DNA of 64,000 nt from Microtetraspora malaysiensis (GCF_001528665.1 NZ_BBYJ01000004.1:310472-374471); one strand, 5' to 3'. Counted from the first letter of the stretch, positions 25,676-41,753 are shown. Made by a program: numbers and translations. The notes: a model not told the origin generated them from the letters alone.

Positions 25676-28600
25676 TCACGCGGGCGGGGCGGCCGGCCCA
25701 GGCTCGTCGGGGTGGGCGGTCGTGCGGTCGATGGCCCGTTCGACGCCGCCCACCCGGTCGGCGAGGAGCCCGATGGCGCCGACGGCCCGGACCATCGGGT
25801 CGTCCTCGTCGCCGCCGAGCGCACGGGCGCGGAGATATCCGGCCTTGACCTCGGCCCAGCGCCGTCGCTGCTCGTCGCTCATCCTGCCGCGCAGCTCGGC
25901 CAGCTTGAGCAGGTTGGCCTCGGCCTCGGACGTCAGTGTCTGCGCCTCACCCGCGTAATGGTCGTCGATCAGCGCCTCGACCTCGGCGTCGTTCATCACG
26001 GGGACGATCCGCTCCACGAGCTTGTTCATGTTCCGGTACGACCCCTGCAGCCGGAAGGACGGTTCGGTTCGCGAGGCGTCCGCCTGCGCCGCCGACGCGA
26101 TGTACGCCCGGTTGACGCCGAGCACCACCCGCTGGATCCGGGTCAGCTTGCTCAACACCGCCGTGACCTGGTCGAGCTCGACCTTCTGGTACGGATGGGC
26201 GAGCTGGTCGGCCCGCACGTCCGCGTCGCCGCGCGCCAACCGTACGAGAAGCTCGATGTCCGCGGGGTCGCGGGTGGACAGCGGCGCGAGAACGGGGTTG
26301 GAGGTGAGCGCGTTCTCGATGTAGCTCAGCGCGAACAGGTCCTCCCTGCCCGAGAGCACGTCGCCCAGGTTCCACACGTCGGCCCGGTTGGCCAGCATGT
26401 CCGGGACGCGGAACCGCTGCCCCGACTCCGTATACGGGTTGCCTGCCATGCAGACGGCGAAGCGCTTGCCGCGCAGGTCGTACGTCCGGGTGCCGCCGTT
26501 CCAGACGCCCTCCATCCGGCGCTGGGCGTCGCAGAGCGAGATGAACTTCTGCAGCAGCTCCGGCGAGGTGTGCTGGATGTCGTCGAGGTAGAGCAGCGCG
26601 TTGTTCCCGCACTCCAGCGCGAACGACACCTTCTCGATCTCCTGCCGGGCGGTGGCGTTCGGCGCGTCCGCCGGGTCGAGCGAGGTGACGGCGTGCCCCA
26701 ACGCCGGGCCGTTGATCTTGACGAACATCAGCCCGAGCCGGCTCGCGACATACTCCATCAGCGTGGTCTTGCCGTACCCGGGCGGCGAGATGAGCAGCAG
26801 CAGGCCCATCTGGTCGGTGCGCCGTCCCTCCCCCGCCGCGCCGAGCTGCTTGGCCAGGTTGTCGCCGATCAGCGGCAGGTAGACCTGGTCGAGGAGCCGG
26901 TTGCGCACGAACGCGCTCATCACCTTGGGCCGGTACTCGTCCAGCCGCATCCGGGCCCGCTCCCGGTCGAGCAGCTCGCCGCGCCGCTTCTGGTACGCCC
27001 GGTAGGCGGGCACCCGTTCGGTCCGGAACCGCCGGGTCCGGGCCAGGACCTCGTCGAGGCGCAGCGTCAGGGTCCGTCCGTTCAGCCGGGGGTGCGCCCC
27101 GAGCAGCCCCTCCACGGTGACCGTGAGCGACATCGACGCCTCGCGCCGCGGCAGGTCGCAGAGCAGGACGGCGACGGCCTCGGCGAGATCTCCGGCGCGC
27201 ACGTCCGCCGCTGTGCCCGGCCGGCCGCCTTCTCGCCGTACGGCTCCCGACCGGAGCGGCGACACGAGATCGGGAGACGTGCCGAGGAACGCCGTCAGCC
27301 AGGCCATGACGAGCTGGTGCCTGGCGGCCAGGTCGTCGCCCAGGGCCCGGAGCTCGGCGTCGAACTGCGCGGCCGACCCGCCGAGCGCCTCGCGAAACCG
27401 CTCGACCAGCCGCCGGGCGAGCGGGCCGGTCGTGAACCCCGCCTCTGAGACGGCGAGCTCGTCGAACAGGTAGTCCCCGGCCGGCTCGGCGTCGTCCAGG
27501 CGTACGCCCCGGTCGCGCAGGAAGGCGGCGATCGCCGACGCGAACTCCGCGCGCAGCTCCCCGATCGCGCCGCCGACCCCGTCATCCCGTACTGCGTCGC
27601 CGTGGTCCCGTACGGCGTCACCGTCGACCGCCGGGGCGTCCGGCGCGCCGGACGTGTCCGCCCCGCGCCTGAACAGGGAGCGCGCCCTGGCCAGCGACCT
27701 GGCCCTGGTGGTCCACGCCTCGCGTTGGGCCGCACCCGCGCCGAAGGTCCAGAAGAGCTGGGCGGCGGCCCGCGCCGACGGCGGGAAACGCAGCAGCCCG
27801 GCACGCGCGTACACCGGGAGCAGCGCGCCGAGGATCGCGGCGGCGTCGTGGTCGTGGACGCCGCGCTCGTACCCCTCGTCGTACCGCGTCTCGGCCAGGC
27901 GGCGGACGAGGTCCGGCAGCCCGCCTCCGGCGAGGGCGGCGTGCAGCTCGTCGAGCGTCAGACCGCCGCCGGAGGCCGACTCGGCCAGGTCGAGGATCGA
28001 CGCGGCCAGGTGCTCGGCGCGGTACACCTCGGGTGACTCGGAGACGAGCACCTGATCCCAGAACGCTCTGGTGCGGTGGAACGCCTCGTCGTCCACCGGC
28101 GACCGGTAGTCGGTACCCGTGATCGCGAACGCCATCCGCCCGTCCACCGGGACCATGGTGAGGTCGATGGGCTGGGTGTTGACCGAGAACCGGTGGCGGC
28201 CGAGCCGGATCGTCTCACCGCCGTCGGCGTACAGGTCGAGCCGGTCGCGCAGCGCCCGCCCCGCGTCGAGGCGGGCCGCCTTGACCCGCCCGTCGAGCTC
28301 GTCGGCGCGTACCTGGTCGCCGAGGGACCGCAGCTCGTCGGCGACCGCGCGGAGCTTGGCCACCATCGGGTCGGAGGCGAAGTACGTGTTCACCTCGTCG
28401 ATCGAGCCGAGGCTCCCGGCGCGCCTGCGGACGCTCTCCAGAATGCGGCCGGAGGAGGCGACCAGCCGTTCCGCGCGCCGGGCCCGGGCGTCCAGCAACG
28501 TCTGGCGGCGCGAGGAGAACGCCTCGTAGACGTCCCCGCGCCTGGCCTCCAGCTTGGCCACGAAGTCGTCGAAATCCCCGAACCGGGACTCCAGGTCCTC

Positions 28601-30877
28601 CAGCCTGAGCAGCAGCCTCCCCATCTGCTCGTCGCAGCTCTCCGGTGTGCCGGCGAGCGCGAGCGCGGCGCTGACGGCCTGGCCGAGGAGGGCGAACTCG
28701 GCGGCGAACTCGGCTCTCTGCTCACCCGCGAGCAGTTCGCGGCGCCGCGCGGCGAGCGTCGCCCGCGCCTGGTTGATCCCCGCGAGCACCTCGGCGACGC
28801 GTTCCAGGATGCCGGTGCGTACGGTCGCGTCCGCGATGTCCAGCCCGCCCACGACCTCGGTCAGGACCTCAAGGCCTTCGGTCTGCCCGGCCAGCCGCTC
28901 GGCCACGGGGCCGGATTCCGCCACGGTCCCGATCGCCTGCGCCTCGGCGGTGAGCCGGTCCACGTCCGCGTGATATCCGGTGAACGCGTCCGCGCCCCGG
29001 AGGAACTCGACCGCTCTCCGCGCGGCCTCCGCGATCTCGGTGTCGAATCGGCCCGCCAGCGCGTCCAGCCGCTCGACGTCGACGTAGCGAACCTCCCGCA
29101 GCGTCGCGAGCCGGCCCTGGGCGCGGCGCAGCTCGGCCAGCCGCGCCACCCATTCGCCCGCCGACGCCGGCGCCTCTCCGCGCACCTGCCGGGCGAGAAG
29201 GGCGACGTTCTCGGCGGCCTCGTCCAGGGCGGCCGCGGCCTGCGCGGTGAGCGACTCTACCCGCTCGAACTCGTCGAGCACCTGCTCGGCGGTCGCGCGC
29301 ACCGCCCCGACGCCGGAGCGCAGGTCGTGCTCGTCCAGCCAGTGGTACTGGTCGGCGATCCGCACGCACGCCGCGATGAGCCCCTCGAACACCGGAACGG
29401 ACGGCTCCATCGCGTCGGCCATCCGCACGACGGAGAGGCAGTCGGAGATCCCGCGCACCAGGTCGGCGTTGCCGATCCGCTCCAGCGGCCCCGTGCCCAC
29501 CGGCCGGGCCGCCTCGAACACGTCCGACACGTACGGCGTCTGCCAGATCTGCATCAGGTGGACCCGGGTCGGCTCCTCGCGTACGGTCCGGCCCTGCTCG
29601 CCCGCGACCGGCGCGGGCGTCCGGAAGTACACGAGCGTGCCGTCCTCGAAGAGCGAGTACCCGTGACACGTGATCGGGTTGCTCACCTCCTTGCGGATCA
29701 CGTTGTACGGCAGGAGCAGCGACCGGCCCTCCGCCCGCGCGTGGAACACGTACAGCACGTCCTCGCCGTTGGGCGAGCGGATGAGGCGCTCGAACTCCAG
29801 CTCGGCGACGTCGAGGTCGAAGGTCTTCACGACGCCGGTGGTGAGGTGGTATCCGCCGGGGAAGACGATCCCCTGGTCCTCGGGGAGCCGCTGGCAGGCC
29901 TGCCCGATGCCGTCGAGGCGTTCGACCTTCCTGGTCCTGGTGTTGAACACCAGGTGGCGCCACTCCTTCTCGTTGTACGGCCGTACGCGCAGCAGGATCA
30001 GCGGCCCGACCCTGGCGTAGTGGACGTCGGCGTCGGCGAGGCTCTGCAGCGGTTCCACGACCGGTTCCCGGTAGATGCCCTCACCGGTCTCGGTGTTGTT
30101 CTCGATCTTGATGGTGAGGTCGCCGCCGACCGTCTCGACGAACACCTCGTCCTCGATCGAGATGTGCGGATGGCGGCCGAGGACGTGGTCGTCCCGCGTG
30201 GTCTCGATCCACTCGAAGTCGTGCGACGGCGGGAAGACGTGGTCGCGTTCGCCCCGATTGTCGACATAGCGGACTGTGCCGTCGGTCGCGACGCTCCACC
30301 GCAGGACCCGGATGTCCTGCGGCCCGGTCTGGAACACGGCCAGCAGCCGCCCCTCCAGCCGCCGGAGCTGCAACAGCCTGGTCTCGCTGTAGTAGCGGTA
30401 CAGCTCGGCGAAGTCCCGCTCGAACGCCGGGTCGTCGAACAGCCCCGGCACCTCGTCGAACCGGAACGTGTCCCCGTCCCGGGTGAACCGGTGGAACGAG
30501 AAGACGTCCCGGGGGGTGGTCCCCGACTTCAGTCCGATGAACACGTTGTAGCCGAACAGCATGACCTCGCCGAGCGAGACGCTGTCGCGGGGCACGCAGT
30601 TGTTCTCGGTGCGGACGCGGGCGGTGCCGAGCAGGCGGAAATCCGCTCCGCCGAAGACCTCCAGCCGCCGCGCGTTCAGCTCCTCGGTCCGGCGCAGCAG
30701 CTCCTTCGCCTGCGTGGCCAGCCTGTCTCGCAGCACCTCGTACGTGCTGGAGTCCAGCTCGGCGGGTGCGGCCGACGGCCCGGTCCCGGCCTCCGCCGGT
30801 GTGGTCGTCGTGGCCGCGGATGTGGTCGTCGGCGTACTCATGGGCGTGCTCATCGGTGTGCTCATCGGTGTGCTCAT
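25676..30877 (-). CDS. Giant (about 1,730 aa) AAA+ ATPase with N-terminal beta-rich domain and long coiled-coil/Ala-Arg-Glu-rich middle; flotillin-operon-associated
   Basis: Walker A ISPPGYGKTTLMEY, Walker B ALLYLDDIQHT, sensor region NPYTESGQRFRVPDMLANRADVW near the C-terminus. Start placed at the first of four tandem ATG-Ser-Thr-Pro codon repeats (30875-30877), 50 bp after the flotillin stop. The track ORF starting at 30976 would overlap flotillin. Confidence 0.7.
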   Translation of the reverse strand: MSTPMSTPMSTPMSTPTTTSAATTTTPAEAGTGPSAAPAELDSSTYEVLRDRLATQAKELLRRTEELNARRLEVFGGADFRLLGTARVRTENNCVPRDSVSLGEVMLFGYNVFIGLKSGTTPRDVFSFHRFTRDGDTFRFDEVPGLFDDPAFERDFAELYRYYSETRLLQLRRLEGRLLAVFQTGPQDIRVLRWSVATDGTVRYVDNRGERDHVFPPSHDFEWIETTRDDHVLGRHPHISIEDEVFVETVGGDLTIKIENNTETGEGIYREPVVEPLQSLADADVHYARVGPLILLRVRPYNEKEWRHLVFNTRTRKVERLDGIGQACQRLPEDQGIVFPGGYHLTTGVVKTFDLDVAELEFERLIRSPNGEDVLYVFHARAEGRSLLLPYNVIRKEVSNPITCHGYSLFEDGTLVYFRTPAPVAGEQGRTVREEPTRVHLMQIWQTPYVSDVFEAARPVGTGPLERIGNADLVRGISDCLSVVRMADAMEPSVPVFEGLIAACVRIADQYHWLDEHDLRSGVGAVRATAEQVLDEFERVESLTAQAAAALDEAAENVALLARQVRGEAPASAGEWVARLAELRRAQGRLATLREVRYVDVERLDALAGRFDTEIAEAARRAVEFLRGADAFTGYHADVDRLTAEAQAIGTVAESGPVAERLAGQTEGLEVLTEVVGGLDIADATVRTGILERVAEVLAGINQARATLAARRRELLAGEQRAEFAAEFALLGQAVSAALALAGTPESCDEQMGRLLLRLEDLESRFGDFDDFVAKLEARRGDVYEAFSSRRQTLLDARARRAERLVASSGRILESVRRRAGSLGSIDEVNTYFASDPMVAKLRAVADELRSLGDQVRADELDGRVKAARLDAGRALRDRLDLYADGGETIRLGRHRFSVNTQPIDLTMVPVDGRMAFAITGTDYRSPVDDEAFHRTRAFWDQVLVSESPEVYRAEHLAASILDLAESASGGGLTLDELHAALAGGGLPDLVRRLAETRYDEGYERGVHDHDAAAILGALLPVYARAGLLRFPPSARAAAQLFWTFGAGAAQREAWTTRARSLARARSLFRRGADTSGAPDAPAVDGDAVRDHGDAVRDDGVGGAIGELRAEFASAIAAFLRDRGVRLDDAEPAGDYLFDELAVSEAGFTTGPLARRLVERFREALGGSAAQFDAELRALGDDLAARHQLVMAWLTAFLGTSPDLVSPLRSGAVRREGGRPGTAADVRAGDLAEAVAVLLCDLPRREASMSLTVTVEGLLGAHPRLNGRTLTLRLDEVLARTRRFRTERVPAYRAYQKRRGELLDRERARMRLDEYRPKVMSAFVRNRLLDQVYLPLIGDNLAKQLGAAGEGRRTDQMGLLLLISPPGYGKTTLMEYVASRLGLMFVKINGPALGHAVTSLDPADAPNATARQEIEKVSFALECGNNALLYLDDIQHTSPELLQKFISLCDAQRRMEGVWNGGTRTYDLRGKRFAVCMAGNPYTESGQRFRVPDMLANRADVWNLGDVLSGREDLFALSYIENALTSNPVLAPLSTRDPADIELLVRLARGDADVRADQLAHPYQKVELDQVTAVLSKLTRIQRVVLGVNRAYIASAAQADASRTEPSFRLQGSYRNMNKLVERIVPVMNDAEVEALIDDHYAGEAQTLTSEAEANLLKLAELRGRMSDEQRRRWAEVKAGYLRARALGGDEDDPMVRAVGAIGLLADRVGGVERAIDRTTAHPDEPGPAAPPA

Positions 30878-30886
30878 CAGCGCTGT
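30839..30886. repeat. 12-bp tandem repeat x4 (atgagcacaccg on minus strand) encoding MSTP MSTP MSTP MSTP at the 5' end of the giant ATPase gene
   Basis: cat at 30839-41, 30851-53, 30863-65, 30875-77 on plus strand, each followed by the same 9 bases. Confidence 0.85.
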
Positions 30887-30926
30887 CGTGGGCGCGTCAC
30901 GTGGTCCTCGGTGCCGGGTCGCACCA

Positions 30927-33074
30927 TCAGTGCTTCGCCGAGTTGGCCGGCGCCGAACCGGCCTCGGCCGGTGCACCGGTTCTCGAGCCGGCCGCCGTAC
31001 CCGTCGCCCCGGCGACGGCCGAGAGCGACCGGTCGGCGACGCCGAGGCTGCGGGCGGCGCTCAGCAGATCCTGGAGCTTGCCCGCGTCCGGGCCACCCGC
31101 GTTGATCAGCTTCAGCAGCACGGCCGAGAGCGTGAGGTTCCGTACGTCGGCGGTGTCCACCGAGCCGACGAGGCGCATCAGGTCCGCGGGCAGGCTCGCC
31201 GTCCCGTCCAGGTATGGCCCGGCCAGCGCCCGCGTCACCGCGGAGTTCTCGACGAAGCCGTCCACGCTCCGGCCCGCCGTGATCGAGTTCATCAACCGGT
31301 CGAAGAAGACGGTGTCGCCGCCCACGATGTCGATGTCGGCGTTCTCCAGGCCCGCGGCGAGCACGGTCGCCTGGGCGTCCGCGATCTCCCGCTGGACGTC
31401 GATGTTCTTGAGGCGGATCTCCTTCTCGGCCTCCAGCCGCAACCGGTACTCCTCGTGGCCCCGGCTCGCCTCGTCGAGCGCCGCCATGGCCTCGGCCTTC
31501 TCCTTGAGGCCCTCCGCCTCCGCCTTCAGCTTCTCGCCCACGGCGGCGGCAGCGGCGAGGGCCTTCGCCTGCTCGCCCTCGGCCTCCGCCTTGAGCCGCT
31601 CGCCGACGGCGAGCGCGGCGGCCAGGCCCTTCTCCCGCTCCACGGCGGCCTCCGCGCGCCCGACCTTCTCGATCGCCTCGGCGTCCCGTTCGCGTACCTG
31701 CACCTCGGCGAGCCCGGCGGCCGCCGCCTCGGCCCGCAGCCCCTCCGCGAGGCGGATCTTGGCCTGGCTGTCGAGCTCGGCCGCCTGCTGCCGCGCCTCG
31801 GCCAGGACGAGTTCCTCGCGCGCCTTGAACGTGGCCGCCTGCTCCGCGGCCTCGGCCGCCTTGATGTCCTTGACCAGGTTCTCCTGTGCCTCGGCCTCCG
31901 CCTGGATCACCAGCGCCTGACGGACCCGCTCGGCCTCCTCGACGACGCGCAGGCGCTTGATGTTCTCCTCCTGCTCGGCGACCGTCTTCTCCACGGCGAT
32001 CCGCTCGCGGGTCACTTCGGCGATGGCCCGCCGCTCGACTTCGAGCTCCTTGTCCTTGGAGATGCGCGACAGCTCGGTCTCCCGCTCGCGGGAGATCACC
32101 TCCAGCAGGCGATCCTTCTCGATCCGCTCGCTCTCGATGGCGATGACCCGCTCGCGGTTCTTCCCCGCGACCTGGATCTCCCGCTCGCGGTTCTCGCGCT
32201 GGATGCCGAGCTGCTCCTCCGTACGGATGTTGGCCGCCTCGAACTTGAGCCGCTCCTCCGCCTGCACCCGGGCCGTCTCGGCCTCCTCCCGCGCCCGCAC
32301 GGTGTCGATCTCGCGCCGCTGCTTGGCCTCGGCGTCGGCCTGCCGCCGCTCCAGTTCGAGGATGGCCTCCCGCGCGTCGACGTTCTGGCGGGTGATCTCC
32401 TTCTCCTCGTTGCGCTGGTACTCATTGGTGCGCACGTGCTCGATCGCCGTCAGCTCGGTGATCTTCCGGATGCCCTGCGCGTCGAGGATGTTCGCCGGGT
32501 CGAGCTGGGCGAGCGGGGTCTGCTCCAGGAAGTCGATCGCGGCGTCCTCCAGGCTGTAGCCGTTCAGGTCGGTTCCGATCACCCTGATGATCTGGTCCCG
32601 GAATTCGTCGCGCTTGGTATAGAGATCGACGAAATCGAGCTGCTTTCCGACCGTCTTGAGCGCCTCGGAGAACTTGGCGTTGAACAGCTCCTGCAAGGTC
32701 GTCTCGTCGCTCGCGCGTACCGTGCCGATCGCCTGCGCGACCTTGATCACGTCTTCGACCGTCTTGTTGACCCGTACGAAGAACGTGATCCGGATGTCCG
32801 CCCGGATATTGTCGCGACAGATCAGCCCTTCATGCCCGGTACGCGTGATCTCAATGGTCTTCACGGAGATGTCCATCACCTCCGACTTGTGGAGAACGGG
32901 AAGCACGACGGCGCCCGTGAAGGTGACATCGACCCGCCGCGTCTTGGAGACGATCAGCGCCATGCCCTGTTCGACCTTGCGATAGAGGCGGCTCACGACG
33001 ACGACCGCGCCGATGACGACAAGAAGGAGAACGGCGAGAAGCACGCCCGTCCCGGTGCTGATCACATCCACCAT
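30927..33074 (-). CDS. Flotillin (SPFH/band-7 family) protein with long coiled-coil EA-repeat C-terminal region
   Basis: N-terminal TM helix, SPFH domain (ALIVSKTRRVDVTFTGAVVLPVLHKSEVMDISVKTIEI...), extended Glu/Ala/Arg coiled-coil typical of FloT/YuaG. Confidence 0.85.
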   Translation of the reverse strand: MVDVISTGTGVLLAVLLLVVIGAVVVVSRLYRKVEQGMALIVSKTRRVDVTFTGAVVLPVLHKSEVMDISVKTIEITRTGHEGLICRDNIRADIRITFFVRVNKTVEDVIKVAQAIGTVRASDETTLQELFNAKFSEALKTVGKQLDFVDLYTKRDEFRDQIIRVIGTDLNGYSLEDAAIDFLEQTPLAQLDPANILDAQGIRKITELTAIEHVRTNEYQRNEEKEITRQNVDAREAILELERRQADAEAKQRREIDTVRAREEAETARVQAEERLKFEAANIRTEEQLGIQRENREREIQVAGKNRERVIAIESERIEKDRLLEVISRERETELSRISKDKELEVERRAIAEVTRERIAVEKTVAEQEENIKRLRVVEEAERVRQALVIQAEAEAQENLVKDIKAAEAAEQAATFKAREELVLAEARQQAAELDSQAKIRLAEGLRAEAAAAGLAEVQVRERDAEAIEKVGRAEAAVEREKGLAAALAVGERLKAEAEGEQAKALAAAAAVGEKLKAEAEGLKEKAEAMAALDEASRGHEEYRLRLEAEKEIRLKNIDVQREIADAQATVLAAGLENADIDIVGGDTVFFDRLMNSITAGRSVDGFVENSAVTRALAGPYLDGTASLPADLMRLVGSVDTADVRNLTLSAVLLKLINAGGPDAGKLQDLLSAARSLGVADRSLSAVAGATGTAAGSRTGAPAEAGSAPANSAKH

Positions 33075-33086
33075 CGAAGATCCCTG

Positions 33087-33647
33087 CTATTGAAGGTCGT
33101 AAGGCATGACCAAGAAGAACTCGCCCTCCGGGTCATAGTCGAAGATCAGAGCGGAGCTGCCGGCACGCAGATCCTCGTCTCCGGTCTGGCGCACCTGCAC
33201 AAGGGCCGAGGAGCCGTCATCGGCCGTGACCTCGGCCTGACCGAAGTCGTGCCCGACCCGTCCCGTGCGGATGACGCACATGCGGCCGACGAAATCGGCC
33301 CGGGACGGCGAAGCCACCGCGGGGAACAGGGCGCGGCTCGCCCGCGCGACCAGGCGGGCGCAGAGCCATCCGGCCAGCAGCGCGACCACGAGCACCGCCC
33401 ACCGAGCGGGAGGCCCCTCGGCCAGCACCACGCCGACCAGGCTGACGAACCAGGCGACCACGACCAGCAGCGACAGCGCCACGGCACCCGGCACTCCCCG
33501 TAGGCCGAGACCGGCGAGGAAATCGTCGGGGAGCTCCATCCCGAGTCCGCCGAGCAGCACGAGCGCCCAATAGACGATGACGACGATCAGCATGAAGCTG
33601 AACAGCACCGCCGGAAACTCCAGCACCGCATCGACGAACCGCGCCAT
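33087..33647 (-). CDS. NfeD-like membrane protein (flotillin partner, YuaF-like OB-fold)
   Basis: Three to four TM helices then C-terminal beta OB-fold (GRMCVIRTGRVGHDFGQAEVTADDGSSALVQVRQ...); 13 bp upstream of flotillin on same strand. Confidence 0.7.
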   Translation of the reverse strand: MARFVDAVLEFPAVLFSFMLIVVIVYWALVLLGGLGMELPDDFLAGLGLRGVPGAVALSLLVVVAWFVSLVGVVLAEGPPARWAVLVVALLAGWLCARLVARASRALFPAVASPSRADFVGRMCVIRTGRVGHDFGQAEVTADDGSSALVQVRQTGDEDLRAGSSALIFDYDPEGEFFLVMPYDLQ

Positions 33648-33687
33648 TGACTCCCACCGTTATCCCGGCCCCCAGAGACAACTGCAA

Positions 33688-33709
33688 TTATTGCGTAAAG
33701 TCGCAATAA
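33688..33709. promoter_or_regulatory. Perfect 8-6-8 palindrome TTATTGCG taaagt CGCAATAA in an AT-rich island upstream of nfeD-flotillin-ATPase operon
   Basis: Read directly; surrounding 70 bp (caactgcaattattgcgtaaagtcgcaataaaagtcagcacgaattcaatgcgaataatggg) is strikingly AT-rich for this genome and contains a third half-site-like GCGAATAA. Confidence 0.55.
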
Positions 33710-33831
33710 AAGTCAGCACGAATTCAATGCGAATAATGGGAACTATTGAGAAGTTCGCGCCGTTGATGCAGAGGCCCGCACCCACCGGGACTTCCAGCGC
33801 GAGGGCCTCGCCCGCGCGGCGAACCGGCTGG

Positions 33832-35964
33832 TCAGCGGATGGTCTGCCGCTCGGTCAGGGCGGCATACCGGCCGCCGTGCCGCATCAGCTCGTCGTGGGT
33901 GCCCCGTTCGACGATCCGGCCCCTCTCGACGACGAGGATCTGGTCGGCGTCGCGCACCGTGCTCAGCCGGTGGGCGATCACGATGCGGGTCTGGGTCAGC
34001 CAGGCGAGGTTCCGCTCGATCGCGGCCTCGGCGGCGGTGTCGAGATGGCTCGTCGCCTCGTCGAGCAGCAGGACCCTGGGCTGGGGCAGGAGCGCCCGCG
34101 CGAGCGCGATCCGCTGCCGCTGCCCGCCGGAGATGCCGCTGCCCTCAGTGAGCATCGTCTCGTACCCCATGGGCATGGCCATGATGTCGTCGTGGACGCA
34201 GGCCATCCTGGCCGCCGCCACCACCTGCTCCAGCGAGGCGTCGGGAACGGCCAAGCCGATGTTGTCCCTGATGGTCCCGGTGAAGAGGTGCGGCTCCTGG
34301 GTGACCACGCCGAAGCGGCTACGCAACCAGCGCGCGTCGATGTCCCACGCAGGCATCCCGTCGTACCAGACGTCACCCTCGACCGGCTGGTACAGGCCCA
34401 GCAGGATCCGTCCCAGCGTGCTCTTGCCCGACCCGGAACTGCCCACCAGGGCGATCTTCTGCCCGGGTCCGACCGCGAGCGACACGTTCCTGACCGTCCA
34501 TGGGGAGCGCGGGTCGAAGCGGAATCCGACATCCCGGAGGACCACCTCTCCGCGCAGGTGCGGCCGCTTCCTGCCTCTCCGCTCGGGCTCGGCCTCGACG
34601 ATGTCGGCCAGCCGCTCGAAGTGCGCCCCTGCCTCCTGGAGCTCCTGCAGGCTGGTCAGCAGCGAGGTCAGCGGGGTGAGGGTGGACATGGCCAGCGCGT
34701 TGAGCGCGAGCATGGTGCCCAGAGTCAGCTCGCCGTCGAGCACCCGTGACGCGCCCACGAGCAGCAGCAGCGCGGGACCGAGGACCCTGATCCCCGACAG
34801 GACCGCATCCAGGGCCCCGCGGGTCAGGCCGAGACGCACGTCGGCGTTCATCTGGGCGGTGAACATCCTGGACCACCGCTCCATGGCACGCCATTCGGCG
34901 CTGGACGCCTTGATGGTCTCGATGCCTCCGATGGACTCGATGAGCCGGCCCTGGGTCGTGGCGGCGGCGGTCAGCTCGCGCCCGGTCAGGTCGGCGATCC
35001 GCCTCCGGGTGGCCAGCAGCAGCGCGACCTGGACGACCGCCACGGCGAGCAGGCATCCTCCGAGCACGGGATCGCCCAGGAGGACCAGAGTCATGAGGAC
35101 CGCGGCCATCGGACCGTCGAGCAGCGCGGAGAGCGCCTGGCCGGAGAGCATGGCCCGGAGGCTGGCCGCGCTCTGCGTGCTCATGACCAGGTCGCTCGTC
35201 CCCCTGAGGGTGAAGAACCGGTAGGGCAACGTGAACAGGTGCCCGACCACACCCGCCGTGAACTGGGTGTCCGCCCGCGCCCGCAACATGAGCAGCACGG
35301 CCGTACGGAGGTACGTGAGGATCGCCTGGATGAGCACCACGAAGCCGAGCCCCACGATGAGGATCCGCAGCAGATAGCGGTTCCCTCCGGGAAGTACCTC
35401 GTCGACGACGAGCCCGGAGAGCAGGGGAAGGACGAGGGTGACGCCCTGCAGCAGCAGGGACGCGAACAACCCCTGGAGCAGCAGGCCTCGGTGGCGGGCC
35501 AGCAGGGCGCGGACCAGGTCCCGGCGCCACGGGCGGCGCTGCGGGCCCCGGACGTCGAACTCGGGGCCGGGTTCGAAGGCCAGGACGACCCCGGTGAACC
35601 CGACGTCGAACTCCTCCGGCGTGAGCCTGCGCCGCCCGGAGGCGGGATCGACGACCTCGACGACGTCCGGGCGCCAGCGCTCGACGACCAGGAAGTGGTT
35701 GAACTCCCAGTGCACGATGAAGGGCCCGGGCACCGCGCCGAGCTGCTCGGGGGCGAGCGAGAACGCCTTGACGCGCAGGCCGTACGATCTGGCGGCCTCC
35801 GCGACGGCCGACGCGCTCAGCCCGTCCCGCGACACCTGGACGTGCTCGCCGACCTCGCGCACGGTCGTGCGGCGTCCGTGGTGCCTGAGAACCATCGCCA
35901 GGCAGGCGGCGCCGCAGTCGGCCATCGTGGCCTGCCTGATCACCGGTACCCGCCCGCGCCTCAT
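33832..35964 (-). CDS. Peptidase-C39-domain ABC transporter (bacteriocin/RiPP leader-cleaving exporter)
   Basis: N-terminal C39 papain-like domain with catalytic Cys context QATMADCGAACLAMV; 6-TM ABC exporter domain; nucleotide-binding domain with Walker A GSSGSGKST, signature LSGGQRQR, Walker B LLLDEATS. Start ATG 35962-64 overlaps upstream stop (ATGA). Confidence 0.85.
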   Translation of the reverse strand: MRRGRVPVIRQATMADCGAACLAMVLRHHGRRTTVREVGEHVQVSRDGLSASAVAEAARSYGLRVKAFSLAPEQLGAVPGPFIVHWEFNHFLVVERWRPDVVEVVDPASGRRRLTPEEFDVGFTGVVLAFEPGPEFDVRGPQRRPWRRDLVRALLARHRGLLLQGLFASLLLQGVTLVLPLLSGLVVDEVLPGGNRYLLRILIVGLGFVVLIQAILTYLRTAVLLMLRARADTQFTAGVVGHLFTLPYRFFTLRGTSDLVMSTQSAASLRAMLSGQALSALLDGPMAAVLMTLVLLGDPVLGGCLLAVAVVQVALLLATRRRIADLTGRELTAAATTQGRLIESIGGIETIKASSAEWRAMERWSRMFTAQMNADVRLGLTRGALDAVLSGIRVLGPALLLLVGASRVLDGELTLGTMLALNALAMSTLTPLTSLLTSLQELQEAGAHFERLADIVEAEPERRGRKRPHLRGEVVLRDVGFRFDPRSPWTVRNVSLAVGPGQKIALVGSSGSGKSTLGRILLGLYQPVEGDVWYDGMPAWDIDARWLRSRFGVVTQEPHLFTGTIRDNIGLAVPDASLEQVVAAARMACVHDDIMAMPMGYETMLTEGSGISGGQRQRIALARALLPQPRVLLLDEATSHLDTAAEAAIERNLAWLTQTRIVIAHRLSTVRDADQILVVERGRIVERGTHDELMRHGGRYAALTERQTIR

Positions 35965-36149
35965 CGCCCCGCTCCGAGCGCGGGAAGGACGCCGATCAGC
36001 ACCACGGCCGCCATCGCCATCGCGAGCAGCCCGACGTAGATCCACAGGCCGACCAGGAGCCTCCTGGAGATCCGGTACGGCCGCTCGACGCGCCGCCGGG
36101 CGGCCATGTGGTGGTGAACCGCCTTCTCCCGGTACGGAAGTCCCGTCAT
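35961..36149 (-). CDS. Small single-TM membrane protein (62 aa) translationally coupled within the graspetide operon
   Basis: ATG 36147-36149 overlaps the stop of the upstream parvulin-like gene (ATGA), and its own stop overlaps the ABC transporter start (ATGA). Sequence MTGLPYREKAVHHHMAARRRVERPYRISRRLLVGLWIYVGLLAMAMAAVVLIGVLPALGAGR has one hydrophobic helix. Confidence 0.45.
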   Translation of the reverse strand: MTGLPYREKAVHHHMAARRRVERPYRISRRLLVGLWIYVGLLAMAMAAVVLIGVLPALGAGR

Positions 36150-37198
36150 GTGCCGGCCCGCCCGGCCGTACCGGTCGAGTTCGCGACGCCGGAAGAGCCG
36201 GACGCGGCGGTCCGGTCCGCGGTCCCCCAGAACCATTCGATCTTGGCCGTGCTCCTGCGCCGCTCGATCCATTCGGCGAAGATCCGGCGCTCGACGAGCT
36301 CGCGCACGGTCCCGTCGAGAACGGCGGGCTCCACGGCCAGCACCTTGATCAGCAGGTGACCGTGTTCCGTCGCGAAAGGACCGGTGACCGTCCCCGGCGC
36401 GGCTCCGAAGACCCGGCCGGCCGTCTCTGGGCTCAGGTCCCCTCTGCGCAGCGTGGCGAACACCTCGCCCGGCCGTGCCGTGCCGTCCGCGAAAGCCCGC
36501 TCCGCGGCGTCGAGGAACCCGTCGGCGGCCGGCACGCGCGGCCCTTCGGTGAACTCCACCCGCGCGACGCGGGCGACGTCGAACTCGTGACCGTGCGCGG
36601 CGAACCAGTCATCGACCCGGCCGGCGGCCACCCGCGACCGGAGTCCGGCCACGGACGCCTCAAGGACGACCAGCTCCTCCAGCTCGTGGTGGGAGATGTG
36701 GTTGCGGTCCATCCATGCCCGGACCGCGCCGCCGGTCAGCAGCCCACGCGCCCGGCGGAACGCGTCCATCGCCTCCTGGAGCTCCGCGTCGGTCAGCGGT
36801 TCGGGCTCCTCCTCCCGCACCTCACGTACGAGGCTGTCGGTGACGAGGCGGTCGGCCAGCCGCGACTCGTCCCAGATGAAATCCAGGCAGGCGATCGCCC
36901 TGGCCACCGGGGTCTCGACACCGTTGACCCGGAGCAGCAGGTGCTCACCGGCCCGGTGGACACCGCGCAGCGGCCAGGGCAACGCCCGGTCGGGGCACCA
37001 GGAGAGGGAGATCGTGGCGCCGTCGCGTTCCTTGATGAGCAGAGCGTGATGGAGCGATCCGTCATATTCCTCACGCTGGGCGACCAGCCGCACCCGCGCC
37101 CCCGGGTACCGCGCCCTGAAGCCATCGAGGTCGTGCCCGGCCGTACCGGCGCCGAGCATGTCGATCGCCTCGGCGAGCATCCGTCCGTCCGTCACCAC
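36146..37198 (-). CDS. Peptide-maturation-system protein with C-terminal PpiC/parvulin-like domain
   Basis: C-terminal GEVFATLRRGDLSPETAGRVFGAAPGTVTGPFATEHGHLLIKVLAVEPA resembles parvulin rotamase fold; start GTG 37196-98 overlaps ATP-grasp stop (GTGGTGA); family of accessory proteins reported next to SAV_5884-type ATP-grasp RiPP maturases. Confidence 0.55.
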   Translation of the reverse strand: MVTDGRMLAEAIDMLGAGTAGHDLDGFRARYPGARVRLVAQREEYDGSLHHALLIKERDGATISLSWCPDRALPWPLRGVHRAGEHLLLRVNGVETPVARAIACLDFIWDESRLADRLVTDSLVREVREEEPEPLTDAELQEAMDAFRRARGLLTGGAVRAWMDRNHISHHELEELVVLEASVAGLRSRVAAGRVDDWFAAHGHEFDVARVARVEFTEGPRVPAADGFLDAAERAFADGTARPGEVFATLRRGDLSPETAGRVFGAAPGTVTGPFATEHGHLLIKVLAVEPAVLDGTVRELVERRIFAEWIERRRSTAKIEWFWGTADRTAASGSSGVANSTGTAGRAGT

Positions 37199-38157
37199 GT
37201 CACTCCGCTCATGAGCAGCTCGCCGACCGCCGCGCCGATGGGCAGCCCGGTCGCGTCCTCGATCCAGAGGAACTGGCCGTTCGGATTGATCTCCAGGAAG
37301 ACATGGCGGCCGTCCGGCGTGAGGATCAGGTCGATCGCGCCGTAGGCCAGCCCGAGCCGCTCGACCAGATCCAGGCACCGCTGGGAGATCTCCGGCGGCA
37401 GGTCGTGCGCCCGGATGGGCGTCGCGCCGGGGTCGTAGTGTCGCCAGTCGTACCGGGTGTGGTTGCTCACCTGGGAATGGATCTCCGCGGCGAAGACCTT
37501 CCTGCCCACCACGGTCACGCGTATCTCGACCCGCTTGGGCACGTACGCCTGGACGATGACCGGGCAGAAGCGCAGGGCGTCCGCGTAGGCGACGTCCACA
37601 GGGGTGACGGGGGCCGCGAACCGGCCGAACCGCTCTCCCTCCGCTTCGAGCTGGTTGCCGTGCACGGGCTTGGTGATCACACGGCCCTCGTGCCGGTCGT
37701 AGAAGTCGAGAAAACTCTCGGGGTCGGTCGTGACCAGCGTCGCGGGGAGCTCAAAGCCCAGCCGCCTGGCCAGTTCGAGCTGGTACGGCTTGCGCGCCGC
37801 GCGGTCGATGACCGGCCGGGAGCCGGGAACCGTGAGGCAGCCGAGGCTGTCCCAGAGGCTCTCGGCCATGACGCGGCACTCCTCCTCCACGTAGTCGCGG
37901 GCGGCGACCCTCGGATGCGCGACCGGGTCGAGGGGCCTGCGGTACCAGAGCGCGGTCACCTCGTCGAGGACGAGGCGGCGGCCCGCGCGGCCGAACATCC
38001 GGCTGGTCGAACCATCCCCGGAGTGGCTGATCTCGAGGGTGGCGGCGGTCGGGAAGGAGGCGGGATCGAAGACGACGACATCCGCGCCCGCGGTCATGAG
38101 CGGTTTCACGACCCGGTCGGCGTGCTCATCTCCGTCAGAGGTCAGGACGAGGATCAT
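37192..38157 (-). CDS. ATP-grasp ribosomal peptide maturase (MvdD/MdnC-like; graspetide macrolactone/lactam ligase)
   Basis: Start MILVLTSDGDEHADRVV (hallmark N-terminus of RiPP ATP-grasp ligases), ATP-grasp fold motifs (VITKPVHGNQ, EIHSQVSNHTRYDWRHYD, GAIDLILTPDGRHVFLEINPNGQFLWIE); 50 bp downstream of precursor gene. Confidence 0.8.
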   Translation of the reverse strand: MILVLTSDGDEHADRVVKPLMTAGADVVVFDPASFPTAATLEISHSGDGSTSRMFGRAGRRLVLDEVTALWYRRPLDPVAHPRVAARDYVEEECRVMAESLWDSLGCLTVPGSRPVIDRAARKPYQLELARRLGFELPATLVTTDPESFLDFYDRHEGRVITKPVHGNQLEAEGERFGRFAAPVTPVDVAYADALRFCPVIVQAYVPKRVEIRVTVVGRKVFAAEIHSQVSNHTRYDWRHYDPGATPIRAHDLPPEISQRCLDLVERLGLAYGAIDLILTPDGRHVFLEINPNGQFLWIEDATGLPIGAAVGELLMSGVTW

Positions 38158-38206
38158 CGGCGGGGCTCCGGACGGGGGCGCGACGCGGTCGCGCCCCCGC
38201 GGCGAA

Positions 38207-38356
38207 CTAGTTGCTGTCGCCGGAGGTGTGCGTGTGGTTGCCGCAGATCTCGATGACCTGGCTCTTGGCGCCACCGCTCACCTGAAGAAGCTGACCCTCG
38301 TCGAGCTCCGGACCGAAGGCCGCGATGTCGTCGAGGGTGGTACGCGTCTTGCTCAT
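38207..38356 (-). CDS. Graspetide precursor peptide (49 aa) with double-glycine leader
   Basis: Ribosome-binding site GGGAGAAAGG 10 bp before ATG 38354-56. Sequence is MSKTRTTLDDIAAFGPELDEGQLLQVSGG / AKSQVIEICGNHTHTSGDSN: leader ends in GG (substrate for the C39 transporter), and the core carries Thr/Ser hydroxyl donors and Asp/Glu acceptors. Confidence 0.7.
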   Translation of the reverse strand: MSKTRTTLDDIAAFGPELDEGQLLQVSGGAKSQVIEICGNHTHTSGDSN

Positions 38357-38655: not shown

Positions 38656-39546
38656 TCAGCGGACGCGGCCGACCATGCGCGCGTACATACGGCCGGGACT
38701 CGGCACTGAGGGCGGGTGCAGGAAGCCCGGCAGCATGGGCAGGTCGACGGAGAAAGGCTGCAGTCGCTCGTAGAGCGTGACGGCGTCGGCGGGGCGATTC
38801 TCCGGCTGCTTCTCCAGCAGCTCGGCGATCAGCCGGTCGAGCTCGACCGGGACGTCGGGCACCGACGGCGGGCGTTCCTTCACCTGCTTGTCGAACACGG
38901 CGTACTCGGTCGGCCCCGTGAACAGCGGCTTGCCGGTCAGCATCTCGTGCAGGACACAGCCGAGAGCGTAAAGATCGCTCTTCGGGCCGGCGACGCCGCG
39001 CTGGATCTGCTCCGGCGACATGTACGCGGGGGTGCCGAGGATCTGCCCGACCCGGGTGAACTGGGCGCCGTCCGACTCGCGCAGCATCGCCAGACCGAAG
39101 TCGAGGACCTTGACGCTGCCGTCGGGGCAGAGCATCAGGTTCGTCGGCTTGAGATCACGGTGACAGATGGACAGCGCGTGCGCCGCGGTCAGCACCGCGC
39201 ACGCCTGGGCGGCGATCGCCGCGGCCCACGGGACCGGGAGCGGGCCATATTCGCTGACCAGGTCGGCGACCGTGACGCCCTCGATGAACTGCATCACCTG
39301 GAAGAGGCGCTGATCGTACGTGCCGAAGTCGTAGAGGACGGGCGCGCCCGGATGCTCCAGGCGGGCGAGGATGCGCGCCTCTCGGATGAACCGGCGCTCC
39401 AGCTCCTCGTCATGACCACCCGGAAAGCGGAGGAACTTCACCGCCACCTTGCGGTCGAGACGCCTGTCGTGGCCGCCGTAGACGGCCCCCATGCCGCCCT
39501 GGCCGAGAGGAAGGTCGTCCAGCTCATACCGGTCACCGATGACCAT
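38656..39546 (-). CDS. Ser/Thr protein kinase (catalytic domain only, 296 aa)
   Basis: [33 protein letters not shown] motifs; 38 bp downstream of the methyltransferase gene on the same strand. Confidence 0.8.
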
Positions 39547-39584
39547 CCGCCCCTCCCGTCGGACTTTCGGGAAAAGCTACACCT

Positions 39585-41696
39585 TCACGCGCGCGGTCGT
39601 AGACGGCCGTCAACCAGCCCCTCCAACCCCAGCCGGATCAGCGCCTCGCCCGCGTCGGCCACTTCCCTGATCGCGTCCTCCAGTTCGGCGAGCCGCCGGA
39701 AGGCCGCCCCGTACGCCCGCTGCTCGACCAGCGGGAGCCGCGGGACGCGAGCCCGGCGGACGTCGACGCGGCTGGCTCCCGGGTGCGCCCGGGCGGCCGC
39801 GTACCGCAGGAATCCGGCGAGGAAGTCCGCGTCGAGCCGGGACCGATCCACCTGGTAAAGCGAGAGCTGCGGGCCGAGGACGGCGCCCGGCTGGTGGATC
39901 ACGCGTGCGGTCGTCGTCGAGGCCACCACGTCTCCGGCCGCCACCGTGACGATGCCGGGCTCACTGCCGGAGCGACCGGACGGCGTCCCGCCTCGGGCGA
40001 GGTCGTCGGCGGTCAATACGTTGAGATCTCCGCTGTCCGCGGTTTTCAGCACCGAATGCCGCACCGTCACCATCCCGGCCTTGGCCAGATCGGTGATGGC
40101 GGTCGTGGGGAGGCCGGCTCGCCCGGACAGCACCTCCAGGTCGGGCAGCGCCCCCGCCGCCTCGGCCAGCACCTCGGCGAGGTCGCGGAGCCCGCGCCCG
40201 GCGGCGGGATAACGCTGCGCGTCGCCACGTGAGGAGACGTGCCGGGCCGGGCTGACGTCCACCTCGTCGTCGAGCAGATCGATGATCCGTACGATCCGGG
40301 CAGAGCGCGGCAACTCGCCTGCCGAGGCCACCGCCGCGGCCTGCCTCGCAACGCCACCGGACGTCCGGCCTTCGGCCACCGAACCGGCGGCCGGCCCGCG
40401 TCGGGCGGCTTCCGGCGCTGCGGGACCGGCCGTGTCCGTGCCGGCGAAACCTTCGCCGGCCGTAGGACTCGTGCCGACGTAACCCGCGTCGGCCAGGTAG
40501 GTCCACCAGGCCGACTCGACGATCGAGAGGTCGTCGGAGGCGTCGGCGAGCAGGATCGACGCCGGGGAGGGCGCCCCCGCCTCCGGCCGGCGCAGCAGCC
40601 AGAGATCCGGCCCCGCGGCGGACAGGCCGATGACCGCGCGCAGGGCTCCGGCGCGGAGCAGGTTCGCGCGGATCCGACGGCCGGAACGCCGGGCCGCGGC
40701 CGCGGCCGGCATCAGGATCGCCACCAGGCCGCCGGGACGCGCGTGGGCCAGGCAGTGCTGGACCCAGGCCAGCTCCGGCTCGCCGCGCGGGGGCACGCCG
40801 TAGTCCCAGCGCGGATCGCCGATCAGCTCCTCGTGGCCCCACGCCCGCTCGTTGAAGGGCGGGTCGCACAGCACCACGTCCGCCCGCTCGCCCTCGAATC
40901 CGTCGTGCCGTAACGAGTCGCCCGCCACGACGCGCGCGTTCGCGTCGCGCAGGAGGAGCCGCAGCGAGGCGAGCAGAGCAGAGGTCTCGTTGATCTCCTG
41001 GCCGAGCAGACGCACCGGCGGCGCACCGGGCGGCGCGCCGTCGAGGACGGCGGTGTCCGAGACCGCGAGCAGGAGCGTTCCCACACCGACCGCCGGGTCG
41101 AGGATCGCGCCTCCTTCGGGACACGCCTGGCGCGCGAGCCGCGCCATGAGCGACGCCACCTCGCCCCGCGTGACCGCGAGCCGCCGGGTGTGCGCCTCCA
41201 CGTAGCGCTCGCAGACGAACTCGAACGCGGTGGCCGGTCCGTGGAGCGCGGACAGGTCCGCGATCCACCGGATGAGCTGCGCGTCCTCCAGGACGCTCCC
41301 CGGCCGGGCCGGAAGGTCGGCCGTGGCCGCCGCGACCTCGCGCGGCAGCCGTACGACCAGGTCGGGAGCGGCGGCGAGCCGGCGCCAGCCGTCGGGATCC
41401 CGTCGCGCGTAAAGGAGGAACGCCCCCGCGAAACCGCTGAGCTCGCCCAGCCGGAGGTCGTCCACGGCGGCCCTGAGCCCCTGCCAGACACGGTCGCCCA
41501 GCGACACCTCGAAGGACTTGCCGTTCCTGCGCAGCCACTCCTCGATCTCGGGCAGCGAGAACAGCGGGCTGGACGCGGTGCCGCCCACCGGGTGGGGAAA
41601 GTCCTCATACCGACGGCGCCAGTTGCTCACCGCGGCCCTCCCGACGTCGGCTAGGCGGGCGATGTCGCCCGCGTTCACTGTGGCGTCGTGGCTCAT
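39585..41696 (-). CDS. N6-adenine DNA methyltransferase fused to HsdS-like target-recognition domain, with N-terminal HTH
   Basis: Motif I ILDPAVGVGTLL, motif IV LCDPPFN (gamma-class N6A methyltransferase); C-terminal PRLPLVEQRAYGAAFRRLAELEDAI resembles the conserved HsdS helix; N-terminal MSHDATVNAGDIARLADVGRAAVSNWRR HTH. Start set to ATG 41694-96 to leave a divergent promoter. Confidence 0.7.
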   Translation of the reverse strand: MSHDATVNAGDIARLADVGRAAVSNWRRRYEDFPHPVGGTASSPLFSLPEIEEWLRRNGKSFEVSLGDRVWQGLRAAVDDLRLGELSGFAGAFLLYARRDPDGWRRLAAAPDLVVRLPREVAAATADLPARPGSVLEDAQLIRWIADLSALHGPATAFEFVCERYVEAHTRRLAVTRGEVASLMARLARQACPEGGAILDPAVGVGTLLLAVSDTAVLDGAPPGAPPVRLLGQEINETSALLASLRLLLRDANARVVAGDSLRHDGFEGERADVVLCDPPFNERAWGHEELIGDPRWDYGVPPRGEPELAWVQHCLAHARPGGLVAILMPAAAAARRSGRRIRANLLRAGALRAVIGLSAAGPDLWLLRRPEAGAPSPASILLADASDDLSIVESAWWTYLADAGYVGTSPTAGEGFAGTDTAGPAAPEAARRGPAAGSVAEGRTSGGVARQAAAVASAGELPRSARIVRIIDLLDDEVDVSPARHVSSRGDAQRYPAAGRGLRDLAEVLAEAAGALPDLEVLSGRAGLPTTAITDLAKAGMVTVRHSVLKTADSGDLNVLTADDLARGGTPSGRSGSEPGIVTVAAGDVVASTTTARVIHQPGAVLGPQLSLYQVDRSRLDADFLAGFLRYAAARAHPGASRVDVRRARVPRLPLVEQRAYGAAFRRLAELEDAIREVADAGEALIRLGLEGLVDGRLRPRA

Positions 41697-41753
41697 GACG
41701 ACAAGCTTAGCTGGAGCTTGTGAAGTCATTCAACCAGTGCTTTACTCAAAAGC

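Follow-up and report, generated by a model that had tools for sequence, protein, structure and literature searches.

What does a giant AAA+ ATPase do when it is encoded directly behind a flotillin-like gene? This question is raised by a 64,000-nucleotide (nt) stretch of Microtetraspora malaysiensis DNA (NZ_BBYJ01000004.1:310472-374471), referred to below as the window; all coordinates are those of this whole stretch. Three genes on its minus strand encode a small membrane protein, a flotillin-like SPFH protein, and a very large soluble ATPase, called here the giant protein. The reading that we favor, with a probability of about 0.6, is that these genes form one operon for a membrane-microdomain machine, a PspA-less, “abbreviated” form of the envelope-stress operon made up of CesT/Tir, PspA, YqiJ, flotillin, and AAA+ components. 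The original prediction for this DNA had proposed such a three-gene system and had described it as unusual and uncharacterized. The claim of novelty in this description is not supported, as operons combining CesT/Tir-PspA, AAA+, band-7, and YqiJ/YuaF proteins with three transmembrane segments (3TM) have already been reported by Ravi et al. (mSystems 2024). According to these authors, abbreviated operons that consist of flotillin and YqiJ/YuaF, in some cases together with the ATPase, have a wide distribution and may act with PspA encoded elsewhere; ATP-dependent membrane remodeling or chaperoning was proposed as the function.

A three-gene unit retained across phyla

The DNA of the window is high in GC and of the actinomycete type. 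A scan for open reading frames (ORFs), followed by translation, finds three co-oriented minus-strand ORFs in series, all with coding-type GC content at the third codon position. They encode the small membrane protein of 186 amino acid residues (33087-33647), the flotillin-like SPFH protein of 715 residues (30927-33074), and the giant soluble ATPase, which has 1,733 residues when counted from the ATG codon (25676-30877). The intergenic gaps are 12 nt between the small gene and the flotillin gene and 49 nt between the flotillin gene and the giant gene. The coordinates and sizes given in the original prediction are correct, as are the adjacency and common orientation of the nfeD-like and flotillin genes, and its placement of the giant gene in the same orientation, 50 bp past the flotillin stop codon, is confirmed as well. 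The longest ORF for the giant protein opens at a GTG codon at position 30976, a start that would create a 50-nt overlap with the flotillin gene. A simple pattern scan detected nothing terminator-like in the two intergenic gaps. A promoter-like site lies 40 nt upstream of the first gene (33687-33716, minus strand); it is a weak consensus match in which 9 of the 12 hexamer positions agree (1 site found versus 0.3 expected) and should be read as a pattern match only.

Conservation of this arrangement was assessed in 84 genomic loci, of which 80 came from a scan of one genome per species and four (L001 and L082 to L084) were added by protein look-up. They represent Actinomycetes, Myxococcota, Acidobacteriota, Gammaproteobacteria, and a metagenome-assembled genome labeled Clostridia. 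In all 81 loci that have enough upstream DNA, the giant gene is immediately preceded on its own strand by a flotillin-like gene, and 4-nt stop/start overlaps of the two genes are seen in 11 loci. The flotillin gene thus accompanies the giant gene not only in actinobacteria, where its constancy had been suggested as a check, but also beyond them, and the idea of one conserved module in which the giant AAA+ gene is coupled to the flotillin gene holds across phyla. The small gene lies upstream of flotillin in 66 of the 84 genome loci and in 58 of 63 metagenome loci. The complete trio is retained even where identity to the query drops to 28 to 36%, namely, in Simiduia, in Psychrobacter, and on a Logan contig, as well as on annotated replicons of Hymenobacter (Bacteroidota), Deinococcus, Pseudomonas fluorescens (pQBR103), and Streptomyces. 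The giant family includes at least 583 relatives among the matches listed (one genome per species) and 714 clusters at 50% identity.

The reverse test, which started from the flotillin and used an independent metagenome collection, detected the giant gene downstream in 60 of the 67 testable loci, and six loci clearly end after the flotillin gene (L115, L119, L124, L159, L160, and L169). The dependence is therefore one-way: the ATPase is never found without an upstream flotillin (81 of 81 loci), whereas flotillin is sometimes found without the ATPase (~10%). In the six ATPase-less loci, the flotillin is ~50 to 55% identical, the YqiJ-like gene is kept, and there is no giant gene within up to 8 kb downstream; in at least four of the loci, convergent genes follow the flotillin gene. 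Such naturally ATPase-less variants could be of use in defining the contribution of the ATPase.

All-against-all clustering of the neighboring ORFs yielded no fourth universal partner gene. The extra apparent clusters of neighbors were discarded, being either antisense shadow ORFs or a lineage-specific PucR-type regulator. This conserved regulator, a protein of ~352 residues with GGDEF_2 and HTH_30 domains, is encoded, mostly divergently, in ~36 Streptomyces and Embleya loci (among L023 to L081, e.g., L037:6046-7104), and the YqiJ-like gene went undetected in 14 of those Streptomyces loci. The Streptomycetaceae form is a two-gene variant specific to this lineage, with a likely regulator of its own. 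In addition, the unit is disrupted in two gammaproteobacterial contigs (L087:6586-7904 and L086:5589-7995): one has an IS200-type transposase gene and a PhyH gene between the flotillin gene and the giant gene, and the other has three short genes, for proteins of 503, 143, and 136 residues, at the expected flotillin position.

The distribution of the family bears on another suggestion made for this locus, namely, that it serves in defense. An anti-phage or abortive-infection system triggered at the membrane would agree with a large NTPase encoded together with membrane proteins, with the N6 DNA methylase and kinase genes upstream of the trio in the window, and with the phospholipase D gene that is present in some proteobacterial versions of the operon (Ravi et al., mSystems 2024). 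However, the giant protein stays at 65 to 70% identity between actinomycete genera, and its chromosomal surroundings are stable, a vertical pattern unlike that of typical defense islands. There are no copies in 50,697 phage records, and copies in 13 of 72,556 plasmid records are mostly on megaplasmids or mislabeled chromosomes. PADLOC-DB 2.0 offers only a 29-residue P-loop match of the giant protein to IetA (E = 0.0035) and none for the other two proteins, and the trio is without an effector domain. Induction by phage infection, reported for Pseudomonas aeruginosa PA3728 to PA3732 (PA3728 being listed as an ATPase), would be equally expected of an envelope-stress response. A dedicated defense function thus appears quite improbable, and this part of the original prediction is not upheld; its stress and remodeling parts agree with the PspA neighbors described below and with the published inference.

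Domain architecture of the giant protein

In Pfam searches, the giant protein matches DUF3686 (PF12458) over the entire profile (positions 1 to 448 of 448; 700 bits, E = 1e-210) and DUF7902 (PF25472) with 107 bits. The full-length sequence also reaches 27.4 bits with AAA and 26.7 bits with AAA_5, above the respective cut-offs of 21.2 and 22, and its C-terminal fragment scores 29.8 bits with AAA and 29.4 bits with AAA_5, the latter over positions 2 to 126 of 139, so that the AAA+ assignment passes the profile check that had been proposed for it. The combination of DUF3686, DUF7902, and a C-terminal AAA module in a protein of ~1,600 to 2,100 residues, by which the family was delimited, is present in the giant protein and in all listed homologs. 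The giant protein is 98% identical to an M. malaysiensis protein, and its nearest relatives are from Microtetraspora.

The NCBI name for these relatives is “DNA repair ATPase,” and the Pfam description of DUF3686 says the same. Apart from the database names, such a function could draw on weak P-loop similarity to RuvB and RFC, but these matches cover ~45 residues around the Walker A motif and reach 15 to 21 bits, compared with cut-offs of 280 to 300. Pfam scans found no nuclease, helicase, or DNA-binding domain in the giant protein, its obligate neighbors encode membrane proteins, and a full-text search of a literature library found no paper that mentions DUF3686, PF12458, DUF7902, or PF25472. 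The DNA repair function is hardly credible and was rejected as a name only; the label hides a likely membrane role in genome annotation.

No transmembrane segment is predicted in the giant protein by hydropathy. The protein starts with a low-complexity tail (residues 1 to 44; 30746-30877, minus strand, as are all parts listed below), which is rich in Thr, Ala, and Pro and is not conserved (majority-residue fraction, 0.16). A fourfold MSTP repeat, encoded by a 12-nt DNA tandem repeat at 30830-30877, opens this tail. Residues 36 to 1200 were modeled with AlphaFold from an alignment containing 58 diverse relatives, with the C-terminal 533 residues, including the AAA+ module, outside the model; the mean predicted local distance difference test (pLDDT) score is 82.6. 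The model begins with a helix (residues 45 to 75) and a β-propeller (residues 81 to 446, pLDDT mostly >90), which has ~7 blades by strand count. This helix-propeller region as a whole (residues 45 to 446; 29540-30745) is recognized by AlphaFold, Foldseek, and Pfam DUF3686 and carries the hallmark motifs of the family, TENNCxPRD, GGDLTIKxENNTE, and SPNGEDxLYVF. It is followed by a helical rod of successive antiparallel helical bundles (residues 447 to 1300; 26978-29539), which contains DUF7902 (residues 630 to 714; 28736-28990). In the model, antiparallel bundles extend to about residue 880, a small β element is located near residues 907 to 918, and further helical bundles come after it; the rod resembles spectrin and talin repeats.

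The AAA+ module and a conserved C-terminal region, defined by Pfam AAA and AAA_5, occupy residues 1301 to 1733 (25676-26977). The Walker A motif reads PPGYGKTT (residues 1365 to 1372; 26762-26785), and the Walker B motif reads LYLDDIQH (26570-26593); both motifs quoted in the original prediction are indeed there, GYGKTT at residue 1367 and LYLDDIQH at residue 1429. By motif reading, AGNPYTESG (residue 1478) is a candidate sensor 1, MLANRAD (residue 1494) a candidate Arg-finger region, and GSYRNMNK (residue 1612) a candidate sensor 2-like element. Searches of the PDB with the single sequence and with a profile returned only weak matches to VCP, NVL, and Rix7, all of them confined to the Walker A region; beyond it, no solved structure is related to the giant protein.

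The domain plan expected for the giant protein is thus correct as regards its β-rich N-terminal part, its helical middle, rich in Ala, Arg, and Glu, and its C-terminal P-loop AAA+ module, but the long coiled coil gives way to the bundles of the model. The likeness to SMC or dynamin-type proteins that had been drawn from it does not stand either. The N terminus is a β-propeller, the lone AAA+ P-loop is C-terminal, and successive spectrin-like bundles take the place of one antiparallel coiled coil, all of which led us to reject the SMC assignment, with no SMC family reported by Pfam. A relationship to dynamins was rejected on the grounds that Pfam and NCBIfam report no dynamin family and AAA+ is the only NTPase module.

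The membrane proteins and their gene neighborhood

The 715-residue protein has a lone hydrophobic stretch at residues 1 to 34, identified by hydropathy as an N-terminal anchor and aligned with the anchor of Escherichia coli YqiK. An SPFH domain (about residues 35 to 215), the most conserved part across phyla, comes next, followed by a helical region up to about residue 570 and a C-terminal block with the motif IDIVGGDxxFFD. When its 84-member family is compared with YqiK by hhalign, residues 7 to 445 align with residues 11 to 420 (probability, 99.8%; E = 2.3e-29), covering the anchor, the SPFH domain, and the helical region; in the source databases, homologs are named “flotillin family protein” or YqiK. 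The flotillin label comes from this profile-profile similarity; at their thresholds Pfam and NCBIfam recognize neither this protein nor the small one. The NCBIfam FloT model scores only 22 bits on the window flotillin, and a Pfam scan gives no Band_7 match for it, but its orthologs in L084 and pQBR103 pass at 42 to 43 bits. The Flot domain (PF15975), which scores 140 bits in YqiK, is absent from the window copy and from ten further giant-linked copies, and residues 520 to 715 align with the YqiK C terminus at an hhalign probability of 0.3%. A PDB search with the family profile gave no match at E = 0.1, and the single sequence found only QmcA (E = 0.79). Because the copies have no PF15975 domain, the 715-residue protein is best assigned to a divergent, flotillin-like branch of the SPFH proteins and not to the canonical flotillins.

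The 186-residue protein combines three hydrophobic segments, seen by hydropathy, with a soluble C-terminal β domain that contains the family motif VGxxCxVRT...FGQAE...GSxALIxDYD. It is a short form, without a ClpP-like domain. Hhalign comparison of its family with E. coli YqiJ gives a probability of 71 to 78% (E = 2e-5 to 4e-5), and a full-length alignment with a Hymenobacter protein named “DUF1449 family” by NCBI (the YqiJ family) reaches a probability of 99.7%. The Pfam NfeD profile matches 1 of 17 family members (E = 0.021), and YqiJ_N and YqiJ_OB match none. The NfeD label of the original prediction depends on the moderate similarity to YqiJ (probability of 78%, E = 2e-5 at best), and not on any Pfam or NCBIfam match at threshold for the window copy.

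Upstream of the trio in the window, minus-strand genes at 33832-36045 and 37192-38274 encode a C39-peptidase/ABC exporter and an MvdD-type ATP-grasp ligase, respectively, and by appearance form a cluster for a graspetide (microviridin-type) ribosomally synthesized and posttranslationally modified peptide (RiPP). They are followed by adjacent minus-strand genes for a Ser/Thr protein kinase and a 714-residue N6 DNA methylase-domain protein (38656-41729). A convergent DUF2293 gene lies downstream of the trio. In the 95% identical M. malaysiensis locus L001, the trio and most neighbors, including the kinase and methylase genes, are kept, and a DUF222 gene replaces the RiPP genes. Their absence there points to a recent gain or loss of the RiPP cluster, which for this reason was rejected as part of the unit.

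In several loci from Proteobacteria and Bacteroidota, the unit is accompanied by PspA together with DUF2170 or CesT/Tir: this is the case in Simiduia (L082), in the gammaproteobacterial contig L087, in pQBR103, and in Hymenobacter. On the 425-kb plasmid pQBR103 of P. fluorescens SBW25 (L088, 1-12178), a PspA/polyamine-type operon and the trio are fused, the genes being arranged in the order PspA, rhomboid protease, DUF2491, DUF350, DUF1190, glutathionylspermidine synthase, small protein, SPFH protein, and giant protein.

A possible flotillin-bound remodeler and related systems

How might the three proteins work together? SPFH proteins form cages, as seen for HflK/C, QmcA-YbbJ, and flotillin-1/2; in the case of HflK/C, the AAA+ protease FtsH lies inside. 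As a general reading, at the same probability of about 0.6 and with any single step graded lower, the trio would be a flotillin-bound, ATP-driven remodeler that acts in defense against envelope stress. The flotillin, held by its N-terminal transmembrane anchor, would build, like other SPFH proteins, an oligomeric ring or cage at the cytoplasmic side of the membrane, and the YqiJ-like protein, with its three transmembrane segments and putative OB-type domain, would sit in or under this assembly in the manner of NfeD partners. The soluble giant protein might dock on the flotillin by its conserved propeller and oligomerize through its AAA+ module. ATP hydrolysis, relayed along the helical rods, could then assemble, dismantle, or reshape the flotillin assembly upon membrane damage; PspA polymers and client proteins held at the assembly are alternative targets of such reshaping.

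Experimental data that bear on this reading come from the bacABCDEF operon of P. aeruginosa (PA3732 to PA3727; PA14_16140-16200), which appears to be the long form of the unit and encodes, in this order, a DUF2170 protein, PspA, a short NfeD, the flotillin PaFlo3, BacE, and BacF. Its six genes are cotranscribed, as judged by reverse transcription-PCR (RT-PCR), with a proposed sigma-54 site, and all products rise together in a bacA mutant. The published phenotypes in biofilm formation, rhamnolipid production, and virulence concern bacA and bacB. Translation of the RT-PCR primers published for the bacD-bacE junction yields the peptides EGDFFN and PKNNCI, which match the GGDxxFFD block of the flotillin and the T(E/K)NNC motif of the giant protein, and the 557-bp amplicon fits the spacing of the flotillin C-terminal motif and the TENNC motif. 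A search of the metagenome contigs with the PA14 primers gave no matches.

Several points weigh against the remodeler reading. BacE appears to be a member of the giant family, an assignment that comes from the primers and the annotation and not from the BacE sequence, and deletion of paFlo3, the bacD flotillin gene, lowered biofilm formation by ~20% with no stress phenotype. None of the members of the ATPase family has a known physical interaction, localization, ATPase activity, or phenotype. The scanned genes of the window include none for PspA, and it is because the window trio has neither PspA nor CesT/Tir (DUF2170) beside it that the locus is taken as an abbreviated form of the operon. The AlphaFold model of the flotillin, built from a 23-sequence alignment, is too poor to use (pLDDT of 57, with the SPFH part at <50), which is why the flotillin identity was taken from the profile-profile comparison. 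Two further points concern the AAA+ module, whose conservation was judged from an alignment of 21 members of the giant family, the most divergent of which is 31% identical to the query. The Walker B motif has DD rather than DE, nearly invariantly in the family, an arrangement that would fit nucleotide binding. Aromatic residues are missing from the segment INGPxLGHxVxSLDP, by alignment the counterpart of the aromatic pore loop in classical AAA proteins such as NVL and Rix7, making substrate threading doubtful. Together, the DD Walker B and the pore-loop segment suggest a non-threading or switch-like AAA+ protein, as far as sequence motifs can tell.

The pore-loop segment also bears on membrane-protein quality control of the HflK/C-FtsH pattern, in which the flotillin cage would corral damaged or unassembled proteins for the giant protein to unfold or extract. 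Here, AAA+ machines enclosed by SPFH cages provide an established precedent, the AAA+ region weakly matches VCP, NVL, and Rix7 around Walker A, and S. aureus FloA-NfeD is published to stabilize unfolded proteins. An unfoldase of this kind is nonetheless unlikely, given that an aromatic pore-loop motif is missing at the aligned position, that the best Pfam coverage is for AAA_5 and not for the classical unfoldase family AAA, and that the trio comes without a protease domain, the small protein being the form that lacks the ClpP-like domain.

Since DD at the Walker B position also occurs in the switch-like DnaA, its near invariance in the family could instead mark the AAA+ module as a nucleotide switch rather than a motor, with the giant protein acting as a structural coat or tether, a propeller-rod scaffold that links flotillin platforms to another structure. 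Foldseek comparison of the giant model with the PDB brings up WD40 and prolyl-oligopeptidase propellers, Nup155-like proteins, and the clathrin heavy chain (E of ~1e-5), so that propeller-plus-helical proteins are among the top matches, and the spectrin- and talin-like rods point in the same direction. These matches have very low template-modeling (TM) scores and very high root mean square deviations, however, and the resemblance to coats is architectural only. In addition, the AAA+ core is the best-conserved part of the giant protein, followed by the C-terminal region and the propeller, and residues 1301 to 1733 account for 80 columns that are ≥90% conserved; in Walker A, the glycines and the proline are invariant and the remaining positions are ≥90% conserved. 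Such conservation of the core argues for an active enzyme, and a mainly structural role is quite improbable.

Within the remodeler reading, a more specific and quite tentative proposal is that the giant protein is a dedicated assembly and disassembly (“coating and uncoating”) machine for flotillin cages, the body of propeller and helical rod gripping the SPFH lattice and an AAA+ ring supplying the power. The one-way dependence and the unusually conserved SPFH domain fit this proposal but do not prove it. If it is true, the giant protein would be the first known case of a non-proteolytic ATPase that acts on an SPFH scaffold, and bacterial flotillins would have a defined biochemical partner. The function of these flotillins is debated, and their deletions usually have weak effects, so a near-constant large AAA+ partner offers a concrete biochemical handle; genetic work is feasible because the family occurs in Streptomyces, Micromonospora, Nonomuraea, and P. 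aeruginosa.

Comparison with known systems places the trio as follows. E. coli YqiJ-YqiK and Bacillus subtilis YuaF-FloT share with it a small three-segment protein, putatively of the OB type in the trio, followed by a flotillin with a transmembrane segment, an SPFH domain, and a coiled coil. However, no ATPase gene follows yqiK in E. coli, and the window flotillin is ~160 residues longer, fails Band_7, and has no Flot domain, whereas YqiK has both domains. As is established for HflK/C-FtsH and prohibitin-m-AAA, an SPFH scaffold is paired with an AAA+ enzyme at the membrane. The giant protein differs from these enzymes in being soluble, in having no protease domain, in its ~3-fold-larger size, and in its propeller and rods, and no homology to them was detected beyond the generic AAA+ fold; the scaffold, too, is of the flotillin type and faces the cytoplasm. 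Vps4 with ESCRT-III/PspA/Vipp1 is similar in that an AAA+ protein is encoded with a membrane-remodeling polymer, PspA being a neighbor of the module in several phyla, but no MIT domain was found in the giant protein, its obligate partner is flotillin and not PspA, and Vps4 is no close match for its AAA+ module.

The two closest systems are the bac operon and the module of Ravi et al. (mSystems 2024). The Simiduia locus L082 matches the bac order gene for gene, whereas the window trio is without bacA-, bacB-, and bacF-like genes. With the module of Ravi et al. the locus shares the same three protein types: it fits the abbreviated form, and the long form was found in Simiduia and Hymenobacter. 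The published account of that module is a short comparative-genomics passage unaccompanied by experiments. The window locus joins a system that is known from this remark and from an uncharacterized P. aeruginosa operon, and a specialist in phage shock protein (PSP) systems would not be surprised by it. The strictness of the linkage (81 of 81 loci), the ~10% of flotillins without the ATPase, the Streptomycetaceae variant with the PucR-type regulator and without a YqiJ-like gene, and the spectrin-like rods are absent from Ravi et al. and are added here; a testable hypothesis on bacterial flotillins gains precision from the linkage statistics and the architecture.

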